A DNA stretch of 10,806 nt from a virus. This document shows, one piece after another, positions 1 through 10,686 of the stretch (the stretch's first letter is position 1; the number at the start of each line of letters is the position of its first letter). Under the pieces are notes generated by a model. It did not search any database and was not told the DNA's origin. It saw only the letters and a list, made by a program, of their open reading frames with translations. The stretch lies in IMG/VR virus record IMGVR_UViG_3300049255_000405, one strand, 5' to 3'. Position numbers and translations under genes: made by a program.

Positions 1-693
1 GCCTGGGTTGTTCATGTCGGGCGGATACGCGCGCCCGCTCGGGGTGGGAAGCGGAGGGCCCCACAGGAAAGGCCGGTAATTCGTGGTTTTCTTCGGATCA
101 GGCTCATATTTGTCAGCTGCGTGGACGTTCACCTCCACCGAGTCCACATCGAGTTGGCTGCCTGCATTCGACTCTTGAAGCGCCGGCGAGAAAAAGACCT
201 GTCCTTGACCGCCGGCGAGGATGCCGGACCGGACCTCTCCTGTAAACTCGGCGAGCGGAATGCTGGTCAGCGGGACTCCCAAAGGAGTCGGCGGATACTG
301 GACATTCGGCTTGGCCTGGACCATGTACGACTGCGTGGTCGTACCGCCATCGGTGGTGCTCGCCTGGACGACAACAGAGACTGTGGCCGGATAGTCAAAA
401 CCGGCTATGATGTTGAAAGAATAGCCGTTGTCCGGGATGCTATACTCGTAGCTCGAGCCCGTGAACTGCGGATCGAAACTCGCGGTGCTTCCATCGAAGC
501 ACGGCAAGGCAGCGATGCTGATCTGCACGGTCGACAGATCGATGAGTCCGCCCTGGACTCCGATCGTCAGCTGAATCGCGTTCGTGCCTGTGGGTATAAG
601 GTCGCCGGGCTCCGGATTGAGCCCGGTCAAATATATGACACCACCACCGCCGTAGTTTGAGCCGAATTCTGCGCCCCAGCCAGGTGCGGGCAT
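1..693 (-). CDS. Hypothetical structural protein; N-terminal 231 aa only, the gene continues past the window start
   Basis: Hand translation of the minus strand from ATG (complement of 691..693) is open with no stop down to position 1: MPAPGWGAEFGSNYGGGGVIYLTGLNPEPGDLIPTGTNAIQLTIGVQGGLIDLSTVQISIAALPCFDGSTASFDPQFTGSSYEYSIPDNGYSFNIIAGFDYPATVSVVVQASTTDGGTTTQSYMVQAKPNVQYPPTPLGVPLTSIPLAEFTGEVRSGILAGGQGQVFFSPALQESNAGSQLDVDSVEVNVHAADKYEPDPKKTTNYRPFLWGPPLPTPSGRAYPPDMNNPG... A GGAGG Shine-Dalgarno sits 7 nt upstream. The gene is co-directional with and 71 nt downstream of the giant gene. It is absent from the ORF track because it is truncated by the window edge. The listed ORFs 121..660 (+) and 440..721 (-) are other frames of this same locus. 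Confidence 0.6.
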   Translation of the reverse strand, partial: MPAPGWGAEFGSNYGGGGVIYLTGLNPEPGDLIPTGTNAIQLTIGVQGGLIDLSTVQISIAALPCFDGSTASFDPQFTGSSYEYSIPDNGYSFNIIAGFDYPATVSVVVQASTTDGGTTTQSYMVQAKPNVQYPPTPLGVPLTSIPLAEFTGEVRSGILAGGQGQVFFSPALQESNAGSQLDVDSVEVNVHAADKYEPDPKKTTNYRPFLWGPPLPTPSGRAYPPDMNNPG

Positions 694-764: not shown

Positions 765-1250
765 TCAGCTCAGCACAGCGATGGAGAACGAATTGGTCGC
801 TGCAGTGCGTATCAGCTTGTAAGTGTGGAAATTCCCGTCTGCCCAGTTGAAAGCTCGACGGAAAAGGCACTTGTTGGCGTTGAGGTCCTGGATCTTGATG
901 AAGTTCACGCTGTTGACGGTGTCGAAACCGATGGCTGCCGTGAACCCGGGACCCGCCATGCCGCTGATACCGATGTAGATATTCGTGTCGCCCGTGATGG
1001 GGTCTGGCACCGCCGCGTTGATGCGCACGCTGAAGGTCACGTCGAAATCCAGCGACGTGGCGTCGGGTAGTCCGGACGGGCTGATGTACACGGTCTTGGT
1101 ACCTGTGCCCGTCGTGCTGTAACGCAAGAAGTCGGTCACGCCCACGCTCAGGAGCTGGAGGGTGACCGCTCCCGGATTGTCCGCCGCCAGGACGAACGGC
1201 GTGAACTGCGCCACGTCGAGTCCGAGCTTGATTGACGCCGGCCCGCCGAC
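765..1250 (-). other. C-terminal domain of the giant protein with a third LamG-like motif (FNWADGNFHTYKLIRTAATNSFSIAVLS); candidate distal receptor-binding tip
   Basis: C-terminal residues about 2052-2080 match the same W...H-T-Y-K/R motif as copies 1 and 2. In fibre proteins the C-terminal domain is usually the receptor-binding tip (established general knowledge). Confidence 0.3.
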
Positions 1251-4200
1251 GAAGATTGAAGAGGGTGGACCGATGGTGGGACTGGTCAGGCGCAGCCTTC
1301 CGTCGCCATTATTTGACGCAAAGTTCGCCGGGATTCCCGGCGTTCCGTTGATACGAGACACGACCGCGCCGATGGTAGTGTCCGTCGCCTGGAACTGGAC
1401 GATAATCGGTGGGTTTGTATCGATCGCAATACTCAGATTATCGCCGGCCTCGATGGAGAATGGTTGAACATTGGCTCCGACCAAGTTGACCTGTTCGGGG
1501 AACGAGCCGCCTTCGTACGAGAGCGTGTGATCGGTCTGGTACTTCAGACCGCCCATGTGAAGGGTTTCGTCATCCGAAAACGGAGCGACGAGTCCAGCCT
1601 CTCCCGTCGTTATGGGGAAGAACTTCAGATTCTCGTACAGGACGCCGGACGGCGGGTCGATGTGAATGAAGATGGAGTTGCCGTGGACGCCCGGCTGAGT
1701 CAGGTGCAAGTTGTACGCGAGGTTGATGGCATCGGCGAGGACTGCCATCGTTCCTTCGTCGACAGCATCTGGGGCAGTCACCACATTCACGGTGTCATTC
1801 ATCACGTGGGCGGGAGCGTCCGAGTCGTTGACGACGGCCACTCTGTGCGCGTTGAAGTTGGCCTTGAGGGCGTTCGCCAAGGCGATACCGGTCGGCAAAT
1901 CCACCGCCGGCGGCAGGAGCACGGCGTCGAACTGGTCGTTGGACAAGTGCACGCGGTACTGCACGACGTGCTTGTTGAACGCCGCGAGGAGGTTGTTCAG
2001 GACAACGAGAGTTCCGGCGAGGAATGGCTGTACGACGAACGCCGTGCCGAGATTGTAGCCCTCGAGGTCCACGATGAGGTGGGAATCCTGGACCAGGATG
2101 TGCTGGTTGTAGTGGTTGGCGAGGTTGTTCGCGAAGGTGATTCCGGTGGGCAGGTCGACAGGCGGAGAATCGGAGTCGCTGTTGAAGCGGTCGATCCCTT
2201 TGTGCACGCCGGGCGCGTTCGGTCGATCGACGTTGACGATGTGCCGATTGAACTGAGTCTCGATGTCCGGCAGGAGGGCGAGAGCGCTCGGCAGGTCGAA
2301 GCAGGGCGGAGCTGTCGAAATGTCGACAGTGTCTGGCCGAACGTGCACTCCCACTTCCGACAAGTGGGCGTTGTAGAACGCCTGCAGGTCGTTGGACAGA
2401 GTGATGAGAGTCGGCAGATCCGATGCGGTGAGAGGCTCGAGGTTGATGATGTCGATGACGTTGTGAGGCCAGGTCCTTTCGACGTGCTCGACGAAGACCT
2501 GTTGGAAATTCTGCACCAGAGTGGCCAGGCTGGGTGCATCCGTCGCCGGCGGAGCCGTAATGGCGAACAGAGTGTCCGCGATGACGTGGACGCCGGCGGC
2601 CACGCGGTGAGCTTCGTAATTCGTGCGCACCTGATTCATCGCCGAGATGGCGTTGGGCAAGTTGAACATGCCCGGGATGGGAACGGTGTCTCCTGGATCG
2701 TTCGTCTGATGAACGCCTGGCGAAATGAGGTGATTGTTGAAGGTCGGAATGACCTGCGTGAAGACGATGGAAATGAGTTCCGTGATGGGCGTGTCGGACG
2801 ACGTCGCGTTGGTGGTGTCGTCCTCGAGGTCTGAGAGGAACCCACTCTCATCGACGAACTGAAGGGCGGGGACGGCCTCTTGCAGAGTCGCGGTCTTGCT
2901 CAGCCCACCACGCGACTGCAAATCCTGCGTCATGGGCACCGGAGGAGTGCCCTCGCCCAGGTTTGTGAAGGCGGCCAGAGCCGGGTTCGACAAGAAGTCG
3001 TCGGAAGGAGTCCCTCCCGAGTAAACCGTGAAACCTGCGTGCTCATGTGGCAGCTGAGTGTGCAGGTGCTCAGGAGAGACGACCGCGTTGGCCTGATTGA
3101 GCGTCTGGTGCGGCGGGATGAGGCGATTGGTCAGCGTCAGCTTGCCGATCGAATACTTGATCGGACCCCAAATGACGCGAGCGATTTCTTCGGGGTCGAA
3201 ACACCCGAACGCGATGCATTCCCTGTTGCCAGTAATCGGCTGCAGGAAACTCGCCGCAACCCCTGGAAGCTTGATAGCGTCGTAGTTGATGGAGATGACG
3301 GGGATGTTACCGCCGTCGAGAAAGACGGACACATTCCCTGACGGGTCACGCACCACACGATAAGTGTGGGACTGAGTCCAATCGACCTGAGAGATGTAGT
3401 ACGAGGCAAGAAGCGACGGATCTCCGCCCGAGTAGATACCGATGAATCTCCTGGAAGCCGCCGTAGGATCTGCGACCTTCAGGTCGCGGAATCCGCAGAC
3501 CGACCTCCAGTCGACCACGGACATCGCTGTACTCGGGTCGCCGTTGCCGACCGCCGTACCGCCAGACCCAAAAGTCATGGCTGGACCGACGACACCAGGG
3601 TGGAGGCTGTTGTACGAGAAATTCCCGAGCGAGATGTTATCGCCCAGGACTATGCAGATCCCGGCTGTCTTGTTCGTGAACAGGTCGACTGAGTGGATCT
3701 GCCCATCATTCCAGGCGAACGGGAAAGCTGCTTGCTGATCGAGAAAGCCGGTTGTCGAATTGTACGACAGCACATTGATATATGTGCCGCCGAATTGGTC
3801 TACCGCGTACTGCAGCTCTACATTCTTGCCGGACGTGCCTTCATCGACGTTGACGAGGACTCCAGCGAATTGCAAATTGGTCCCCGAGACGATCGGGTTC
3901 CCCGGAGTGAATGACACGACAGCGAGCCGGAAGTCGACCTTCCAGTCCACAGCGGGATTGAAGACGGGGCTCGTGTACAGAGTGTTGTTCAGAGTGTAGA
4001 CAAGGAAGTCGCTGGTGCTCGAGTCCGTGATCCGCATCGTGCGGCCGAGCATCTCGGACGCCTGGCTTCCAGAAGCCACCCAGTCTGGCGTGTCCTGGTC
4101 CGGGAAAGTCGCGCCAAACCAAGAGACTTTGGGTTCAGGATTGGAGTCGCGTCCGAAGTATGTGCCCAGGGCCAGACCCAACTTCTCCAGTGCGTTTCCG

Positions 4201-7007
4201 CCGAGAAGTCGGAGCTGAGAATTCGCGCCGAGCGTCTGATCCGTCAGAACGATGGCGCCGGAGCCGTTGTCCGCGGCGAGCGCGAAGCCTACCGCGGCGT
4301 TGATGACGGTCGAAACCTGCGCTGTGGTCGTCGCTGGTGAGGTGAAAGTGACGGTGATGGGCTCCGCCGAACCGATGCCAATAATGGCGGTGTCGTTGGT
4401 GGCGATGCCGAAAGGTTGCGTCGATGTCCCGGTGACAGTGGCCGCGCTCGGGGTGTCCTGCAGGAACAGAAGCCACGTCGAGAAGATGTCATCGTCGATG
4501 AAGACGCCGGCGCCCTTGTTGTCCAGGCTGAATGTGTAGAATCCAAGGCTCGCCGTGAACTCCACGGTGCTGGCGGCCACTCGAGTGAGGATAGGCTCGA
4601 GCCGCAAGAACCCGCGATACGCACCGGTTGTCATACCGAGCGCGGCAATGTCATCGAGCGGAGCGCTGGCAGTCGAATCCAGGACGAGCTTGTTGAGCGA
4701 CAGTCGCTCGAAACCCGACTGCCCAATAGTGATCCACGGGGCGGTGGGGTCGAGTTCCGGGAGGACCGTGGGCTCGTAGTCGACCGCTTTGTTGTCGCCA
4801 ATCTGGTCTTCGTCGATGGGCGTGACATCAACGCGGATGAAAGCCCACTTGCTGGTCGAAGTGCTTCGGCGCCACACAGCACCGAAGAACACTTGCGACA
4901 TCGGATTGAGCCGAATGTCGACGTCGGACGTTGCAGGAAGCTGCGCGTGGGTCACGCTTGCTGTGGGGACAACAGCGCCGCTGGTGTAGAGGGAAACGTT
5001 CCCCTCCGAGTCGCGGAAGATGCGGTAAGTCGCGTCGATGGACCAGTTGACTGCTCCACTGACCCAGCTGTCCTCGAACTCCGGGAAGCCAGAGTTGGTG
5101 AGAAACCCGATCTGCTGCACCAGACCCACCGAGTTGACGGTGTCGTTGTTGTAGTGGATGCCAGGAGCGGTCAGGTGCGTGTTGAGGTTGTCACGCAGCT
5201 GGTTGACCAGGGCGAGAGCGCTCGGGAGATCTGTCGAGTCCGGCGCCGTAATCTGGTCGGCCGAGTCAGCGAGCACGTGAATGTGACCGCCGCCGTAGGA
5301 CATGTGCTGATTCATCAGCACTTTGAGGCGGTTCGCGAGGATGATGAGAGAGGTGAGATCCGTCGCGTTGACGATATCCACCGTGTCTATAGTGTCGTTC
5401 GGCCGATGCACACCCGTAAGGATAAGGTGAGCGTCGAAAGCGGCCGACAGATCGTTCACCATTGCAATGGCGGACGAAAGATTATTGGCGTCGGTGAGGA
5501 GCAAGCCGACCAGAGCGACTTTTTGACCATCCGCGAGGCCGAAGCCGACGCCCGTGAAGGTCCCATCCGGAACGGTCTGCGACACGCTCACGCGGAAAGC
5601 TGCGGAGACTGTGCTGTCGAAAGTGAGGTCGATGGGATGCGTGTAGAAAGGAGGCTCGATTCCCGGACCTGGACTCGGGTTAGAGTCCACAATGGTGAGC
5701 CCGGTCCCTCCAGGAGCCAAGCTCATCGTGCCTTGACCCTCGAGCGTCCAGGGGTCTGTCGCCTGATCGGGCAGAGCCGTCGGGTCGTACCTAATCACGA
5801 CCTCGAACACTTCAGCGTTGAGGACCGGGAAGAAAACCCGGTTAGTTGGCACGTTCAGCAGCAGCGTGTTCGGATCGTTGAGGACAGCGCTGTAGCTGCG
5901 CTGGAGCATCTTGTACTTCCAGCCCGTGCGCAGCGGTTGATACGGAGACTTGATGGTGGGAAGCGCGTTCGTCGGGTCGACGAGGGTTGCTTTGGCCCGA
6001 TACGTGTAACCCGGCACGCCCATGAATCCGCGGTTGCCGGATTCGTTGAGGACGAACTCTGGAGAGTTGAGCCTCTGAAACTGCGTCGGTGGATTTCCGA
6101 GAAAATCGTAGTTGATGGTGACGGTGTCGGTCGGTTGTGGTGTGTTCGTCAGCACCACTGCACCGAGGAGACCGAAGACAGCGTCGACACTGGTCTCGAT
6201 GCCGTTGACGAAGACCTGCACATCTGCAGGGCTGTCAGCCACTTCCCCGATGCGCGGGTCCGAGAGAACCCAATTGAATGGACCGATGTTGACGCCCGAC
6301 TGGAAGGCGACTTGAGCGGATGGAACCGTGACCCTGTCGACCGTGTCTCTCTCGTAGTGGTAGACGCCGCTGTCACGGTGAAGTTCGTACGCTTGCCGGA
6401 GAGCGTTGGCCAGATAGAACGCGCTTGCCAGATTGCTCGCTGGCGGCAAGAGCACGACGTCTTGCGAGTCAGGATTGAGGTGAACGGGAGGAACGCCGCC
6501 GGTGAGCCCGATGTGGTTGAGGAACTTCGGCAGAAGCTCGTTGAGGAGAATGATCACACTCGACAAGTCCACCGAATTTTGCGCCAGAACCACGTCTGCC
6601 GGGTCGATGGTGCCGTGCACATATGGCGGCGCTCCCGTCCCGCCATTGACCACGTGGGCGTTGAACTCAGCCTTGATGTTGTTGGCCAAGGCAACGACGG
6701 CCGCAAGCGTCACCTGAGGATCCGAAGCGTCTAGCGTCGCGTTGCCAAGTGCCAGAGTCGTCGAATTCGGCACCGCCGCGATGGGAAAAGTGCCATCATT
6801 GCGTCCGTGCGGACTGCCGGAGATGGTGATCGTCTTGCCGATGAAGGTCAGGTCGAACGATGCAGTCGGGATCTGCACCAGGTTCGGACCGATGACCATG
6901 AGGTTGGAGCCTGTGAGCAGCGGGAGTGGCTGCTTGACGATCACACCCTTGTTGGTGAACAAGGTGCGGTCGCGCACAGACTGGAGGGCGGAGAGCGGGA
7001 CAGTCAT
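765..7007 (-). CDS. Giant 2080-aa mosaic fibre/adhesin-like protein: about 15 copies of a His-pair ~40-aa repeat in three blocks, plus three LamG/concanavalin-like lectin motifs; putative tail fibre or host-recognition protein
   Basis: Single uninterrupted 6.2-kb ORF, essentially impossible by chance. It has internally coherent protein-level repeats. It has no N-terminal signal peptide (MTVPLSALQSVRDRTLFTNKGVIVKQ...). Composition is rich in T/S/N/D/V/G and poor in K/R/C/W, as in beta-rich fibre proteins. Its start ATG overlaps the upstream gene's stop as TGATG. Confidence 0.88.
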   Translation of the reverse strand: MTVPLSALQSVRDRTLFTNKGVIVKQPLPLLTGSNLMVIGPNLVQIPTASFDLTFIGKTITISGSPHGRNDGTFPIAAVPNSTTLALGNATLDASDPQVTLAAVVALANNIKAEFNAHVVNGGTGAPPYVHGTIDPADVVLAQNSVDLSSVIILLNELLPKFLNHIGLTGGVPPVHLNPDSQDVVLLPPASNLASAFYLANALRQAYELHRDSGVYHYERDTVDRVTVPSAQVAFQSGVNIGPFNWVLSDPRIGEVADSPADVQVFVNGIETSVDAVFGLLGAVVLTNTPQPTDTVTINYDFLGNPPTQFQRLNSPEFVLNESGNRGFMGVPGYTYRAKATLVDPTNALPTIKSPYQPLRTGWKYKMLQRSYSAVLNDPNTLLLNVPTNRVFFPVLNAEVFEVVIRYDPTALPDQATDPWTLEGQGTMSLAPGGTGLTIVDSNPSPGPGIEPPFYTHPIDLTFDSTVSAAFRVSVSQTVPDGTFTGVGFGLADGQKVALVGLLLTDANNLSSAIAMVNDLSAAFDAHLILTGVHRPNDTIDTVDIVNATDLTSLIILANRLKVLMNQHMSYGGGHIHVLADSADQITAPDSTDLPSALALVNQLRDNLNTHLTAPGIHYNNDTVNSVGLVQQIGFLTNSGFPEFEDSWVSGAVNWSIDATYRIFRDSEGNVSLYTSGAVVPTASVTHAQLPATSDVDIRLNPMSQVFFGAVWRRSTSTSKWAFIRVDVTPIDEDQIGDNKAVDYEPTVLPELDPTAPWITIGQSGFERLSLNKLVLDSTASAPLDDIAALGMTTGAYRGFLRLEPILTRVAASTVEFTASLGFYTFSLDNKGAGVFIDDDIFSTWLLFLQDTPSAATVTGTSTQPFGIATNDTAIIGIGSAEPITVTFTSPATTTAQVSTVINAAVGFALAADNGSGAIVLTDQTLGANSQLRLLGGNALEKLGLALGTYFGRDSNPEPKVSWFGATFPDQDTPDWVASGSQASEMLGRTMRITDSSTSDFLVYTLNNTLYTSPVFNPAVDWKVDFRLAVVSFTPGNPIVSGTNLQFAGVLVNVDEGTSGKNVELQYAVDQFGGTYINVLSYNSTTGFLDQQAAFPFAWNDGQIHSVDLFTNKTAGICIVLGDNISLGNFSYNSLHPGVVGPAMTFGSGGTAVGNGDPSTAMSVVDWRSVCGFRDLKVADPTAASRRFIGIYSGGDPSLLASYYISQVDWTQSHTYRVVRDPSGNVSVFLDGGNIPVISINYDAIKLPGVAASFLQPITGNRECIAFGCFDPEEIARVIWGPIKYSIGKLTLTNRLIPPHQTLNQANAVVSPEHLHTQLPHEHAGFTVYSGGTPSDDFLSNPALAAFTNLGEGTPPVPMTQDLQSRGGLSKTATLQEAVPALQFVDESGFLSDLEDDTTNATSSDTPITELISIVFTQVIPTFNNHLISPGVHQTNDPGDTVPIPGMFNLPNAISAMNQVRTNYEAHRVAAGVHVIADTLFAITAPPATDAPSLATLVQNFQQVFVEHVERTWPHNVIDIINLEPLTASDLPTLITLSNDLQAFYNAHLSEVGVHVRPDTVDISTAPPCFDLPSALALLPDIETQFNRHIVNVDRPNAPGVHKGIDRFNSDSDSPPVDLPTGITFANNLANHYNQHILVQDSHLIVDLEGYNLGTAFVVQPFLAGTLVVLNNLLAAFNKHVVQYRVHLSNDQFDAVLLPPAVDLPTGIALANALKANFNAHRVAVVNDSDAPAHVMNDTVNVVTAPDAVDEGTMAVLADAINLAYNLHLTQPGVHGNSIFIHIDPPSGVLYENLKFFPITTGEAGLVAPFSDDETLHMGGLKYQTDHTLSYEGGSFPEQVNLVGANVQPFSIEAGDNLSIAIDTNPPIIVQFQATDTTIGAVVSRINGTPGIPANFASNNGDGRLRLTSPTIGPPSSIFVGGPASIKLGLDVAQFTPFVLAADNPGAVTLQLLSVGVTDFLRYSTTGTGTKTVYISPSGLPDATSLDFDVTFSVRINAAVPDPITGDTNIYIGISGMAGPGFTAAIGFDTVNSVNFIKIQDLNANKCLFRRAFNWADGNFHTYKLIRTAATNSFSIAVLS
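1668..2795 (-). repeat. Repeat block C of the giant protein (about residues 1405-1780): 9 tandem copies of the His-pair repeat
   Basis: TFNNHLISPGVHQTND; NYEAHRVAAGVHVIAD; FVEHVERTWPHNVID; DLPTLITLSNDLQAFYNAHLSEVGVHVRPD; DLPSALALLPDIETQFNRHIVNVDRPNAPGVHKGID; DLPTGITFANNLANHYNQHILVQDSHLIVD; VVLNNLLAAFNKHVVQYRVHLSND; DLPTGIALANALKANFNAHRVAVVNDSDAPAHVMND; AVLADAINLAYNLHLTQPGVHGNS. The spacing of the first His is 40-47 aa. Similarity is at protein level only, since the nucleotide sequences have diverged. Confidence 0.7.
3150..3700 (-). other. LamG/concanavalin-like lectin motif 2 in the giant protein (DWTQSHTYRVVRDPSGNVSVFLDGG); domain bounds approximate
   Basis: Residues about 1209-1233, nt about 3309..3383. 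This is the best match of the three to the LamG core W-H-x-x-x-V-x-R-D-x-x-G-x-V-S-x-F-L-D-G. Confidence 0.4.
4900..5150 (-). other. LamG/concanavalin-like lectin motif 1 in the giant protein (W-x-x-x-x-TYRIFRDSEGNVSLY); domain bounds approximate
   Basis: NWSIDATYRIFRDSEGNVSLYTSG (about residues 654-677) resembles the conserved core of laminin-G/ConA-like jelly-roll domains (W-h-h-v-x-v-x-x-D-x-x-G-x-x-x-L-Y-V-D-G). Confidence 0.35.
5148..5495 (-). repeat. Repeat block B of the giant protein (about residues 505-620): 3 copies of the His-pair repeat
   Basis: NLSSAIAMVNDLSAAFDAHLILTGVHRPND / DLTSLIILANRLKVLMNQHMSYGGGHIHVLAD / DLPSALALVNQLRDNLNTHLTAPGIHYNND. The first His falls at residues about 528, 568 and 611, a spacing of 40-44 aa. 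Confidence 0.65.
6318..6725 (-). repeat. Repeat block A of the giant protein (about residues 95-230): 3 copies of the His-pair repeat
   Basis: TLAAVVALANNIKAEFNAHVVNGGTGAPPYVHG / DLSSVIILLNELLPKFLNHIGLTGGVPPVHL / NLASAFYLANALRQAYELHRDSGVYHY. Coordinates are approximate (+/- 10 nt). Confidence 0.6.
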
Positions 7008-9049
7008 CAGGCGCTCACGATCTCGTTTCCGTAGAGGTCCTGCACTCCGTAGATATCAAGAGAGTATTGGGCTTTGGCCATTCCGATGACGTTGATGCTC
7101 AGAACTCTATCGTCGACCCACTCCGAGCCCTTCGTCAACAGTCCCGGTGGCCCAGTAATGACGATGTCCGCCGGCGTGAGTGCGGCCGGGCGGATGGGTT
7201 TAGAGAAGTAGACTTGCACGGCGTCCTGCTCCCAGCGAACACCATTGTTCGTATCGACTACGCCAATCTTCGGGATGGCCGACGCTACGAATGGAGGCGG
7301 CTCCACACCGATGAAGGGAGCCTGGATCATGAACCTCCTCGGCACGGTGCCGTTCCTCACGTCGATGAAGGAATACTGCGATTGCGCCTTCACCTGATAG
7401 GCCGCACCGTTGAGCATCCCGAGGTCGATCTGAAGAGTGTCGTAGAGTTTGGCCGAGTAGAGCGACACGCCAGCGGAATTGTGAACGCCCACGTTCACGT
7501 TGTGCGCCGTGAACGAGTTGGTCAGCCGCTCGAGAAGCAGAACGGCGGAGGGGAGGTCCGTCGCGTACCGCATCCGGACCAAGTTCGGATCCGGATAGTT
7601 GTGGTAGACAGTCGAGCTGGCGTGGTCGAGGTAGATGTCGCGCACGCGGTTGACTGCGGCGATGGCCGAAGCGAGACTGGCTACCGGGAATTCGCTCGGC
7701 AAGAAGTAGTTGATGAAGTCGGGTTGCACATGTCCCGCGCCGTACGGCGTCGTGATGTGCTGATTGTACGACTGCATCAGGTCGGTGACGGCCAGAACGA
7801 GAGCCTGGATGGAAGCGGTGACGTCGGCTCCGTCTGTAGGAACAGCGCTCGTTGGTCCAAGCACTGAAAGACTTTGGAGTGCCGGAAGCTGGATTCCCTG
7901 CGAGAATCGGAAACCCGCTTGTTGCGGGATCACCTGAGTGCCGACCACACGAGGCGGCGTCGCCAGAGGAAGAACTGAAATGCTGCCTGTGTAATCACCA
8001 GGATTCGTTGTACGAGCGAGATCTTCGCTTTGAATTTGCGCAGTCAGCTGGTACGACGGATTCGGGCTCGTCGCCGCGACCTCCACCTGGGCGAAATACG
8101 TGCAGGTATCCACCGCCGGGAACGCGAGGCCGTCCTGTGCCGAACTCCAATCGCGCACCGACTTGATGACCACGGGCGAACCGTTGGACGTCACCGTCCA
8201 GTTCGCGGTGTTGATGACCTCAGCATGGGCCATCGTGCAGCTGAAGAACACGTTGATGAAGGCGCGGTTGTACCCGCTGGGTGCGTCGGAAACGCTGTCG
8301 ACCCATGCATCGATGATCTGCGGCTGGCTGAGGACAGCGTATGTGTAAGGCTGCGGTGCCCGCAAAGTCAGTGACAGAGGGATAGTAGCCTGCACTTGAT
8401 TGTACGACCCGTCGACCACGTCCGCGAACGAGATGGTGTAGCTCGAGGCTGTGTCCATCGCCGGATTCAGCTCGAACCGAAGGACGTTGGCCGGGAACGA
8501 TCCATCCCACGGAATGCGGGTCATGGGTTGAGGTGTCCCTCCCATTGCCGCCTGGATGGTCGCTGTGCACGCTGGAGAACTCGGACCTACGGACCGGTCG
8601 AAATAGATGTCGACCATATTCCGGAGCGAGAGAAACGCTCCGATGGCCAGAGGAGGGTTCGGCACGTTTGCCCGAAAGTTTCCAGCACTCGGAGTCACAC
8701 TGTTGCCATCTGGACTCGTGACGCCGACGATGGAGAGCGCGTAGACCGTCTGGAATGTGAGCGACTGATTGAGCGTGAGGGCGACGGACCTATGGTCCGC
8801 GTCGTAGAAAGAGACGGTGACTACGACCGGGACGTAGTTCGGGACCGGGCCGCTGACGGCGAGCATCGAGTAAGCGCCCGGTTGAAGGGCGGACTCGTCA
8901 ACTTGGTCGTCGAACTGAACTCGAATAGTTCGCTGATCAAGCACGTGCGGTGTGAACCCGAACGGCAGAGGCGGAAACTGGCCGATACCGCCAAGAACGA
9001 TCTTGCCTAGCTGGCTACCGGCGCCTCCGAGCTGTCCAGTGAACGGCAT
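7007..9049 (-). CDS. 680-aa protein with four bacterial Ig-like (SbsA/Big_5-like) domains and three copies of the His-pair repeat; putative fibre/baseplate-associated structural protein
   Basis: Complete ORF. AAGGTG Shine-Dalgarno 4 nt upstream of the ATG. Only 11 nt after the stop of the collagen-like gene. Its stop overlaps the next start (TGATG). No signal peptide (MPFTGQLGGAGSQLGKIVLGG...). Confidence 0.85.
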   Translation of the reverse strand: MPFTGQLGGAGSQLGKIVLGGIGQFPPLPFGFTPHVLDQRTIRVQFDDQVDESALQPGAYSMLAVSGPVPNYVPVVVTVSFYDADHRSVALTLNQSLTFQTVYALSIVGVTSPDGNSVTPSAGNFRANVPNPPLAIGAFLSLRNMVDIYFDRSVGPSSPACTATIQAAMGGTPQPMTRIPWDGSFPANVLRFELNPAMDTASSYTISFADVVDGSYNQVQATIPLSLTLRAPQPYTYAVLSQPQIIDAWVDSVSDAPSGYNRAFINVFFSCTMAHAEVINTANWTVTSNGSPVVIKSVRDWSSAQDGLAFPAVDTCTYFAQVEVAATSPNPSYQLTAQIQSEDLARTTNPGDYTGSISVLPLATPPRVVGTQVIPQQAGFRFSQGIQLPALQSLSVLGPTSAVPTDGADVTASIQALVLAVTDLMQSYNQHITTPYGAGHVQPDFINYFLPSEFPVASLASAIAAVNRVRDIYLDHASSTVYHNYPDPNLVRMRYATDLPSAVLLLERLTNSFTAHNVNVGVHNSAGVSLYSAKLYDTLQIDLGMLNGAAYQVKAQSQYSFIDVRNGTVPRRFMIQAPFIGVEPPPFVASAIPKIGVVDTNNGVRWEQDAVQVYFSKPIRPAALTPADIVITGPPGLLTKGSEWVDDRVLSINVIGMAKAQYSLDIYGVQDLYGNEIVSA
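7010..7228 (-). other. C-terminal Ig-like domain of the 680-aa protein
   Basis: VQVYFSKPIRPAALTPADIVITGPPG...VLSINVIGMAKAQYSLDIYGVQDLYGNEI. The classic SbsA_Ig-type ending is ...V-x-D-L-x-G-N. Confidence 0.45.
7460..7828 (-). repeat. Three His-pair repeats in the 680-aa protein (residues about 408-530)
   Basis: DVTASIQALVLAVTDLMQSYNQHITTPYGAGHVQPD / FPVASLASAIAAVNRVRDIYLDHASSTVYHNYPD / DLPSAVLLLERLTNSFTAHNVNVGVHNSAG. This is the same family as in the giant protein, and the first-His spacing is 45 and 40 aa. Confidence 0.65.
8054..8923 (-). other. Three tandem Ig-like domains (SbsA_Ig/Big_5-like) in the 680-aa protein
   Basis: RVQFDDQVDESAL...VTVSFYDADHRSVALTLNQSLTFQTVYALSIVGVTSPDGNSV; VDIYFDRSV...WDGSFPANVLRFELNPAMDTASSYTISFADVVDGSYNQV; INVFFSCTMAHAEVINTANWTVTSNGSPVVIKSV...CTYFAQVEV. 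These follow the V-x-V-x-F-S-x-x-V ... T-Y-T-V-x-V ... D-x-x-G-N pattern of bacterial Ig-like domains. Confidence 0.45.
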
Positions 9050-9060: not shown

Positions 9061-10686
9061 CTAGAAGGTAGCGATCAGCATCCAGTCATTTTGCCCGTCG
9101 CTGACAAACATGTAGGAGGTGCGTGAACTGACGGGTGTGAACGAGAGCCCAGTCTGCCCGTCCATTGTGTCCGCCCCGGTTGGAACCAAGCCGACTGCAT
9201 TCGTCGAGGTCGCGATGGCCTTGACCACGATGGGAATGCCGTAGTAGAGAGCGGCCTCAGGGAAGAGGACGTTGACCGGCTGGTGCGTGGAATTCACGCG
9301 CACGATCTGTCCGGGCTCCGCAAGGACAGTGATCGCCGATTGCTCAGGCGTGGGGGAATAGCTGGTGTTGATGGGCCCGGTGACGCCTTGCGGTCCCTGA
9401 ATACCCGTAGCACCGATGGGCCCTTGAGGACCTGTGGCGCCTTGCGGTCCAGTCGGTCCGATGGCACCCTGAGGACCAATATCGCCGGTCGGGCCCTGTA
9501 CACCAGTGGCTCCCGGGGGCCCGCCAAAAGGACCAGTTGGTCCTTGATCTCCCTGCGGCCCCGTGGCACCCGCAGGTCCGGTCGGACCCGTCGCGCCCGT
9601 GAGACCCTGGTTTCCTTGGGGGCCCTGGACGCCGGTCGCGCCTTGCGGGCCGGTCGCCCCAACAGGGCCAGTTGGCCCGAGAGGGCCGGTGAATCCGATA
9701 GGCCCGGGAGTCCCTTCGATACCCTGGACGCCGGTCGCTCCTTGGGGTCCCGTCGCACCTTGCGGGCCGACTGCACCCGTAGGGCCGGGCGGACCACCGA
9801 ATGGGCCGGTGGGTCCTTGCGGACCAGCGGAGCCCGTTGGTCCGGCAGGCCCTGCAGGGCCTGTTGCACCAGCTTGACCGGTTCCCTCGAGCGCAATGGC
9901 TGAAAGGTTGCCCGCGTCGAACTGGATTTGGTTGCCACCTACGCTTCGCCACTGGACTTTGACGGTATACGTCCCGGCGGGAAGTTGAGTGCTAACAAAG
10001 TTGTTCGAGACAATTGCGGCTTCGTTAGTGTTCACCTCATTGCGCCGAATCTCCGAGCTAAGTTGCCCGTCGATGTAGAGAATGATGCCGATGGACTCCG
10101 TGGTGCTAATCTGCTCCCACTGGATATCGGTTTGAGCGTAAATAGCGCAAGTTGCGCTGGTCGTAATAGTCGTGCCGAGCCCAGGAACATCGACAAACGA
10201 CGTCGACGTAGTTGTGGCGGGCCCGACTGCAGATGCGTAGGCAGAATCGATCGGGTTGTTCGGACCTGCAGGCCCTGTAGCGCCATCAGCCCCGGTGGCT
10301 CCCGGGATACCCTGCGGCCCCTGGATTCCCTGCGGACCCTGAGGGCCAGTGGAGCCCTGCGGACCGATTGCCCCGGTTGGTCCCTGGACACCGGTGGGCC
10401 CGATGGTGCCCTCGACGAAATTGGTCAGAGCGCCAGCAGTCAAAACGTGAGTGACAGTCGCTCCCGGGAGGTGCTGAGCCGGAGGCGTGTTCTCGATGCC
10501 GCGGATGACAGAGAAGACGCTGCCCTGAATACCCGTCACCAGCATCAACTCGTTGTCGATGCGGATGCGGAACTGCGGCGCCGGCGGGAACTGGGTGACG
10601 TTCGTCGTCTGGACGTAGTTCGTCACTGCGTCCAGCGGCAGCTGCAGAGTCCCCTGGGCTGTGTTGGCAAATTGCTCTTGGGCCAT
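9061..10686 (-). CDS. Collagen-like triple-helix repeat fibre protein, 541 aa. Layout: N-terminal domain, G-X-Y tract 1, globular beta-rich domain, G-X-Y tract 2, C-terminal domain
   Basis: Long runs of uninterrupted Gly-X-Y triplets rich in P/Q/T/A ([47 protein letters not shown] and a second tract of about 170 aa). Complete ORF with ATG. No signal peptide. Confidence 0.9.
9373..9885 (-). repeat. Collagen-like G-X-Y tract 2 (about 57 triplets, residues about 268-438) with two one-residue register 'stutters' ([11 protein letters not shown])
   Basis: [43 protein letters not shown]...[32 protein letters not shown]...[11 protein letters not shown]. The GPF-GGP-PG motif occurs twice, about 91 residues apart, as part of an internal duplication. 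Each occurrence shifts the Gly register by one residue. Confidence 0.85.
9886..10260 (-). other. Globular beta-rich domain between the collagen tracts (possibly C1q/TNF-like, as in BclA-type collagen-like proteins)
   Basis: [125 protein letters not shown]. It shows alternating hydrophobic beta-strand character. Its position, interrupting a collagen stalk, is unusual. Confidence 0.35.
10261..10404 (-). repeat. Collagen-like G-X-Y tract 1 (about 16 triplets, residues about 95-142)
   Basis: [50 protein letters not shown]. Confidence 0.85.

Follow-up and report, generated by a model that had tools for sequence, protein, structure and literature searches.

Nested ConA/LamG-like jelly rolls and a His-helix repeat in a 2,080-residue protein, probably a tail adhesin of an uncultured jumbo phage

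The window analysed here is a 10,806-nucleotide stretch of viral DNA (IMG/VR record IMGVR_UViG_3300049255_000405), in which a minus-strand gene at 765..7007 encodes a protein of 2,080 residues. An earlier note, made from the sequence alone, had described this protein as a candidate host-recognition fibre with three lectin-like modules on a repeat-built stalk. We show that it contains four mutually homologous ConA/LamG-like jelly rolls (D1 to D4) nested by domain insertion, and we think that it is probably a virion tail (baseplate-distal) adhesin of an uncultured jumbo myophage of about 240 kb. Lectin-fold adhesins are expected on jumbo-phage tails, and the headline of the earlier note is therefore not new. 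The new element is an un-named repeat of about 42 residues arranged in three-unit modules, which we call His-helix modules, together with the nested-domain architecture.

Four jelly rolls nested by domain insertion

Two AlphaFold2 models were made, each from a 36-sequence alignment. The model of residues 230-1340 has a mean predicted local distance difference test score (pLDDT) of 79 and lies mostly above 85 for residues 399-1289; that of residues 1341-2080 has a mean pLDDT of 83.5, with the nine-unit repeat block C mostly above 90. Repeat block B interrupts D1, a flagellin-IN/FliD-like module (IN1) together with the complete jelly roll D3 interrupts D2, and a second such module (IN2) interrupts D4. 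From the N terminus onward, the gene and its parts are as follows.

765..7007, minus strand: whole gene, 2,080 residues plus stop (open reading frame [ORF] call; exact protein P0001)
6723..7007, minus strand: N-terminal domain, residues 1-95 (occupancy 0.95-0.99, consensus ~0.6)
6312..6719, minus strand: His-helix module A, residues 97-232, 3 units (unit hidden Markov model [HMM], E 3e-17 to 6e-15)
5814..6305, minus strand: "mid" region, residues 235-398, conserved (conservation profile, model)
5493..5813, minus strand: D1a, first half of ConA-like domain 1, residues 399-505 (beta strands with pLDDT >85)
5109..5492, minus strand: His-helix module B, residues 506-633, 3 units, in a loop of D1 (helices between the beta halves)
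4803..5108, minus strand: D1b, second half of ConA-like domain 1, residues 634-735, holds motif 1 (model, hhalign)
4452..4790, minus strand: D2a, first half of ConA-like domain 2, residues 740-852 (model, hhalign)
4143..4445, minus strand: IN1, flagellin-IN/FliD-like alpha/beta module, residues 855-955, inside D2 (hhalign, ortholog P0029)
3468..4136, minus strand: D3, complete ConA-like domain, residues 958-1180, inside D2, holds FAWNDGQIHSVDLF (model, hhalign, Foldseek)
3132..3455, minus strand: D2b, second half of ConA-like domain 2, residues 1185-1292, holds motif 2 (model, hhalign)
2793..3131, minus strand: linker, conserved, low pLDDT, residues 1293-1405, holds PEHLHTQLPHEH (consensus 0.6-0.7, pLDDT <50)
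1638..2768, minus strand: His-helix modules C1-C3, residues 1414-1790, 9 units (pLDDT mostly >90, unit HMM)
1497..1637, minus strand: D4a, N-terminal strands of ConA-like domain 4, residues 1791-1837 (partly low pLDDT; contiguous with D4b in relative P0106)
1212..1496, minus strand: IN2, second FliD/flagellin-IN-like module, residues 1838-1932
768..1205, minus strand: D4b, C-terminal ConA-like domain, residues 1935-2080, holds motif 3

The homology of the four jelly rolls was assessed with hhalign on family sub-alignments of each domain, from which the inserts had been excised. D1 aligns with D2 (probability 99%, E 5e-18), D3 with D4 (95.5%, E 1.5e-8), D2 with D4 (90%, E 1.7e-6), and D2 with D3 (72%, E 3.4e-5), while the D1-D3 and D1-D4 pairs (48% and 29%) are weak taken singly. 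The motif strings quoted in the earlier note were all found at the positions that it implied: NWSIDATYRIFRDSEGNVSLY (motif 1) at residues 654-674, DWTQSHTYRVVRDPSGNVSVFLDGG (motif 2) at residues 1209-1233, WADGNFHTYKLIR (motif 3) at residues 2055-2067, and the His-rich linker PEHLHTQLPHEH at residues 1312-1323. The motif of the fourth ConA-like domain, FAWNDGQIHSVDLF at residues 1097-1110, had been overlooked.

The ConA/LamG-like reading of these W..HTYR motifs is backed at the fold level by Foldseek, which was run against the PDB with the whole model of residues 230-1340 as the query. It returned 301 matches at E<=1e-3, lectin-type domains first. Among the leading matches are Vibrio cholerae sialidase and its lectin domains (1e-10 to 1e-6), botulinum neurotoxin (BoNT) Hc, legume lectins, PL7 alginate lyases, NanS-p of phage phi24B, neurexin LNS domains, and the central fibre of mycobacteriophage Douge. 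The jelly roll thus superposes on ConA, LamG, and legume lectins at the fold level, and the structural comparison that the earlier note had called for gives the resemblance to ConA-like domains that it foresaw. At the level of Pfam, LamG/Laminin_G_3 (PF13385) has no match at E<=1 in the 2,080-residue protein; the family was seen only in the swapped tip of a relative, P0050. Of the three LamG/ConA-like lectin modules claimed earlier, the fold therefore stands, whereas the count rises to four with D3 and the Pfam sequence match is missing.

If one or more of the jelly rolls were a PL7/PL14-type lyase or a GH16-type glycanase, the protein would be a capsule or exopolysaccharide depolymerase. This is very improbable, since the non-catalytic lectin, LNS, and toxin-binding domains score equally well or better than the lyases in Foldseek. 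Moreover, none of the PL7 (RxEL, QIH, YFKAG) and GH16 (ExDxxE) signatures, read by eye in the sequence and the family consensus, is conserved; in the "QIH" at residues 1102-1104, the His alone is kept in the family consensus.

To judge from their sequences, the insertion-free relatives P0106-P0120 can be taken as a natural control for the insertions. They keep the mid region, D1, D2 with D3, the linker, and D4, and lack blocks A, B, and C; P0106 also lacks both IN modules. Their D1 is contiguous, without block B, and the stretch equivalent to residues 1785-1844 directly abuts that equivalent to residues 1935-2077. D4 is therefore a split domain as well, which accounts for its apparently abrupt end after motif 3. 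The mid region is the best-conserved part in common with these distant relatives, and the N-terminal domain (residues 1-95) is weakly common to P0106 and P0107. The relatives form a sister family of 1230-2140 residues, most of them with an extra N-terminal extension of 400-650 residues.

The two IN-like modules, each of about 95 residues, had escaped the earlier note. They are homologous to each other (hhalign probability 99.6%, E 1.2e-23) and similar in fold to domains D2-D3 of FliD. In Pfam, Flagellin_IN (PF07196) gives the 2,080-residue protein 14 bits against a threshold of 22.7, while the ortholog P0029 reaches 27.4 bits at the position equivalent to IN1, above threshold.

The mid region consists of a small beta domain followed by residues 301-398, where strong conservation meets low pLDDT. 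Residues 301-398 (5814-6107) and the linker, residues 1293-1405 (2793-3131), are among the most conserved segments of the family and have a pLDDT below 50 in the monomer models. Both are candidate assembly or oligomerisation interfaces, and the N-terminal domain is a candidate attachment domain. Within the linker, H1321 is invariant and H1323 nearly so, forming the only conserved HxH of the protein.

The His-helix module

A unit HMM of the ~42-residue repeat, with 200 shuffles of the protein as the control, identified 15 units: three in block A (residues 97-232), three in block B (residues 506-633), and nine in block C (residues 1414-1790). Per-unit E-values range from 1e-9 to 1e-20, and the 200 shuffled proteins gave no match at E<=10. 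The repeat blocks A, B, and C of the earlier note, including the nine copies in C, were thus recovered. The blocks align with one another over their full three-unit length, A with B, for instance, at 36% identity (E 4e-20). On the DNA, Tandem Repeats Finder detected nothing, the repeats being too diverged at that level. The unit consensus is A-x-D-L-x-s-A-I-x-L-a-N-x-L-k-x-x-f-N-x-H-x(5-13)-V-H-x3-D-x2-N-x-V-t-x-P, and in an alignment of 103 units neither His varies, and conservation of the Asp reaches at least 90%. According to DSSP on the models, each 42-residue unit comprises a helix of 19 residues and, after it, an extended loop of ~22. In module B, the three 19-residue helices are placed between the two beta halves of D1, and both His are invariant in every unit of the family alignment.

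Members of the family always have three units in block A and three in block B, and from 3 to 21 in block C; the total number of units is divisible by three in 78 of the 105 members. The same grouping is found far beyond it. A search with the unit profile of 1.84 billion representative proteins (clusters at 50% identity) yielded at least 1648 clusters at E<=1e-3, including 927 at E<=1e-10, the carriers being 180 to 3370 residues long. Among 126 representatives, blocks of 3, 6, and 9 units make up 66, 28, and 10 of 197 blocks. Since blocks of these sizes dominate, the autonomous unit is probably a three-repeat module of ~125 residues. In 58 unrelated carriers, conservation stays at 90% or more for each of the six His in a module and for its Asp residues. 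We infer that each module is an autonomous fold with pseudo-threefold symmetry, in which six invariant His and three Asp would come together in the interior, as a metal site or a polar network, and so stabilise a surface-exposed decoration domain. Block C would be a rigid spacer of adjustable length. The stalk built of repeats that the earlier note had pictured under the lectin modules does not survive in this form, for A and B are apparently globular three-unit insertions and only C is spacer-like.

No Pfam or NCBIfam model covers the His-helix module, and phrog_37030 (76 positions, function unassigned) is the only family that does. Against PDB sequences, the repeat-unit profile gave chance matches only (E of at least 0.065), and a literature search found no description of the ~42-residue repeat or of a BARA-like phage domain. 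The annotated partners of the module are tail proteins or Tc toxins only. In other uncultured phages, it is inserted in a tail sheath (P0137, residues 226-603, 9 units), a Baseplate_J wedge protein (P0196, residues 143-269, 3 units), and a pectate-lyase-type tailspike (P0240, residues 615-746, 3 units); one tail fibre, one major tail protein, and one Big_5 protein are further carriers. Six units also occur in the TcA-type Tc toxin subunits P0176 (NOY25333.1, from an Oligoflexia metagenome-assembled genome [MAG]; residues 1236-1475) and P0178 (residues 1515-1750), directly after the PA14 domain and before ABC_toxin_N. The module is therefore common to phage tails and to the receptor-binding shell of ABC toxins. 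Of 50,697 deposited phage genomes, one contains it: in the metagenomic phage MW202476.1 (positions 5857-6393; our locus L005), it forms a stand-alone hypothetical protein of 178 residues, encoded between head-region genes and the sheath gene, which may be a head or neck decoration. From its distribution among sequences, the module seems to behave as a mobile surface cassette of uncultured phages.

Genomic setting and probable role

The window has a G+C content of about 60%, and its genuine long genes are all on the minus strand. The ORF at 765..7007 starts with ATG and ends with a stop within the span, and its translation on the minus strand, which the earlier note had not specified, bears out the 2,080 residues given there. 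Plus-strand ORFs antisense to it, among others 1464-2834 (456 residues) and 4416-6734 (772 residues), have TTG starts and are most likely shadow ORFs of a coding strand with 60% G+C. Three other genes are found in the window.

7007..9049, minus strand: gene for a 680-residue protein with Big_5 Ig-like domains and one His-helix module (Pfam, unit HMM)
9061..10686, minus strand: gene for a collagen-like fibre protein, 541 residues (Pfam Collagen 7e-31, PHROG tail fibre down to 3e-57)
1..693, minus strand: downstream gene, truncated at the window edge after 231 of its 275 residues (GGAGG ribosome-binding site)

The ATG of the 2,080-residue gene overlaps the TGA of the upstream 680-residue gene (ATGA). 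This overlap suggests that translation of the two genes is coupled and that their products are physical partners; the 680-residue protein is thus a probable translationally coupled partner. It carries a three-unit module of its own, overlooked earlier, at residues 412-528 (window ~7415-7822), flanked by Big_5 domains. The synteny of this gene is retained in loci L002 (679 residues) and L003 (849 residues). In L003, where the match extends over two ORFs, stop-codon recoding was considered and rejected, since tblastn shows that the upstream part is the repeat-bearing neighbour gene. The collagen-like protein has Gly-X-Y tracts at residues 93-143 and 270-439, with a globular insert of ~125 residues between them, and a non-collagen C-terminal domain. 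Collagen tracts imply a trimer, and the locus therefore encodes at least one truly trimeric fibre beside the bead-like giant protein.

In L002, which is 89% identical, the order of genes is a Baseplate_J-like wedge (1148 residues, Pfam Baseplate_J 1e-8), an endonuclease VII/HNH gene, a 281-residue gene, the collagen-like gene, the Big_5 gene, and the homologue of the 2,080-residue gene, followed by several unassigned genes interrupted by a GIY-YIG homing endonuclease. Together with the window, this places the gene inside a phage tail/baseplate module. The locus is thus a tail/baseplate module of an uncultured jumbo phage and no cellular adhesin or S-layer operon, which settles the choice between a phage and a cellular origin that the earlier note had left to the genomic context. 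The GIY-YIG gene of L002 lies between the downstream 218-residue and 205-residue genes and is absent from the window's own contig (L001). Together, the endonuclease genes of L002 (GIY-YIG and, after Baseplate_J, endonuclease VII/HNH; 4232-4783 and 18106-18843) point to mobile endonuclease traffic in the tail module.

The exact protein (P0001) is recorded as a "hypothetical protein" on contigs as long as 240,015 bp. It has about 105 full-length homologues (33-89% identity), all hypothetical and on contigs of up to 475 kb. They span 1550-2590 residues, and the size of the protein, which the earlier note had thought very large for a single fibre gene, is unremarkable in this family. One homologue lies in an IMG/VR viral genome of 241.6 kb, and in deposited phage genomes the only match to the family, a weak one, is in a 485-kb "uncultured phage". 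In 185,579 bacterial and archaeal species, each represented by one genome, there was a single match, on a 3.5-kb MAG contig. This contig (L004, DATBQC010000623.1) is binned as a Methylobacter sp. soil MAG and is 51% identical over residues 13-396; it is at best a weak hint at Methylobacter as the host, of which the 60% G+C of the window is no obvious fit.

That the protein might instead be cellular (a bacterial adhesin, an S-layer protein, or a toxin component) is hardly credible in light of these data. The TcA-type toxin subunits of the Oligoflexia MAG do carry the His-helix module, and the collagen-like neighbour does resemble bacterial Scl/Lcl adhesins, well below their thresholds. However, the gene is surrounded by Baseplate_J, homing endonuclease, and PHROG tail-fibre neighbours, with no secretion-system genes nearby, and its homologues include one in an IMG/VR viral genome and just one in a tiny MAG contig among all those species.

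Conservation is uneven along the protein. Residues 1-1400 have an occupancy of ~1.0 and a consensus of 0.5-0.7, and residues 1400-2080 an occupancy of 0.56-0.98 and a consensus of 0.23-0.5. In the C-terminal third, both the number of C modules and the tip domain differ between relatives, with tips swapped for Laminin_G_3 in P0050 (8e-19) and for TIG domains in P0086. Conservation at the N-terminal, presumed anchoring end combined with variability at the distal C-terminal end is the pattern of receptor-binding proteins, and in this respect the receptor-binding function proposed in the earlier note fits.

The adhesin is thus built on a family-wide scaffold of the mid domain, D1, D2 with nested D3, the linker, and D4, and loops of this scaffold have received seven accessory insertions, namely, two IN-like modules and the three-unit His-helix modules A, B, and C1-C3. 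In a possible scheme for its action, the N-terminal part, with residues 301-398 and 1293-1405, would serve as the attachment to the baseplate or to the 680-residue and collagen-like proteins made from the same transcript, or else drive oligomerisation. The jelly rolls, above all the variable tip formed by IN2 and D4 and possibly also D1-D3, would bind host surface polysaccharides.

The same conservation has a second, less probable explanation, namely, that the protein is a structural component of the baseplate or its periphery, with a role like that of T4 gp7 or gp10, and that its modules serve protein-protein contacts with no direct receptor binding. We consider this unlikely, though it has several observations on its side: the gene lies a few genes downstream of that of the Baseplate_J wedge, the conserved part up to residue 1400, D1-D3 included, amounts to two thirds of the protein, the two conserved low-pLDDT segments suggest assembly interfaces, and the His-helix module also occurs in purely structural proteins (sheath and wedge). 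The variation in repeat number and the swapped Laminin_G_3 and TIG domains at the C terminus are, however, typical of host-range determinants, and the Pfam, PHROG, and NCBIfam/PDB searches linked the protein neither to gp7 or gp10 nor to any other wedge family.

Still less probable is a hair- or whisker-like decoration of the sheath or head, mediating weak, non-specific adhesion instead of acting as the primary receptor-binding fibre. Some jumbo phages bear hair-like decorations (reviewed in PMC7824862), and the module appears to be a general decoration of virion surfaces, being present in the sheath P0137 and in the 178-residue protein of MW202476.1, between head-region and sheath genes. Yet the 2,080-residue gene adjoins baseplate wedge and collagen-like fibre genes, and nothing puts its product on the head or sheath.

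Several points weigh against a tail adhesin and its details. The ConA-like fold is no proof of sugar binding, and glycan binding is deduced from it; the role of D1-D3, the best-conserved of the jelly rolls, may be purely structural. The fold matches should be read as belonging to the whole model, not to single residue ranges. PHROG and Pfam give the protein no named tail-fibre family match, and searches of the whole sequence against Pfam, PHROGs, NCBIfam, and PDB sequences returned nothing usable (in PHROGs only phrog_37030, E 0.022). Its presumed location in the virion is read from the gene neighbourhood, and the baseplate context is taken from the 89% relative L002 because the window's own genome was read only on contigs of 3.7-12.8 kb. 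The monomer models are confident and bead-like, unlike classic intertwined trimeric fibres, so that "fibre" may be the wrong picture. Finally, position-equivalent units within modules are no more alike than other units (p = 0.3), so that the case for a threefold grouping comes from counts and block sizes and draws nothing from position-specific sequence.

Relation to known systems

ConA-fold lectin domains on jumbo-phage fibres have already been documented (PMC7824862). Compared with LamG/Laminin_G_3, the V. cholerae sialidase lectin domains, BoNT Hc-N, and legume lectins, the present protein has no Pfam-level match, and it differs from ConA-like lectin systems in having four copies, three of them interrupted, with one jelly roll nested inside another. 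Such an architecture, in which three of four domains are split by insertions, is extreme. The IN modules recall D2-D3 of FliD, Flagellin_IN, and the outer domains of myophage sheaths, but here a single insertion of ~95 residues sits in a lectin-like domain.

For the His-helix module, the BARA domain of Vps30/Beclin 1 (PDB 3vp7) offers a comparison in fold, being built of three beta-alpha repeats related by pseudo-threefold symmetry. The two show no similarity in sequence, and BARA lacks the His signature; moreover, DSSP assigns mostly loops to the His-helix model in place of the three-stranded sheets of BARA, and a link between them would be conjectural. The YHYH domain, a His-rich, predicted Zn-binding domain that jumbo phages carry in fusions with tail or baseplate proteins and with ConA-like lectins (PMC7824862), resembles the module in being His-rich, tail-associated, and accompanied by ConA-like lectin domains. 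However, YHYH is a single domain with a YHYH motif, whereas the module is a 42-residue tandem helical repeat. An identity of the two was considered and rejected, as the 2,080-residue protein has no Pfam match to YHYH (PF14240) at E<=1.

Trimeric phage fibres and spikes contain metal sites, such as the HxH-Fe sites of T4 gp37, the apex Fe of P2 gpV, and the Zn site of T4 gp12. The module is reminiscent of these sites in that invariant His recur along a tail appendage, and with six His in each threefold unit, an octahedral coordination would be feasible. In contrast to T4 gp37 and P2 gpV, the threefold unit here comes from one chain and the spacing is H-x6-13-H-x3-D, not HxH, which leaves the likeness an analogy. 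One may speculate further that the ~125-residue module is an undescribed, widespread metal-binding domain in which one chain reproduces the three-chain His-metal sites of fibres, that it travels as a mobile surface-exposed cassette among sheaths, baseplates, tailspikes, fibres, and Tc toxins, and that it makes the present protein a monomeric, length-tunable "beads-on-a-string" receptor-binding fibre; taken as a whole, this seems rather doubtful to us. In any case, the module constitutes a large domain family that no curated database names, with conserved His, His, and Asp and a grouping in threes. Should it turn out to act as a stable, modular spacer or binder, it could matter for predicting the host range of uncultured huge phages and for protein engineering.

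A parallel in behavior is offered by the Ig-like, FN3, and other accessory decoration domains, which occur inserted in phage structural proteins. Like them, the His-helix module is small, apparently autonomous, and sporadic, varies in copy number, and is inserted in sheath, baseplate, tailspike, and fibre proteins at loops that would be exposed. It differs from them in its fold, a helix plus loop repeated three times, in its invariant His/Asp signature, and in its occurrence in TcA toxins. That phage tails and the receptor-binding region of Tc toxins both contain it suggests that the two draw on a common set of tools for engaging cell surfaces.

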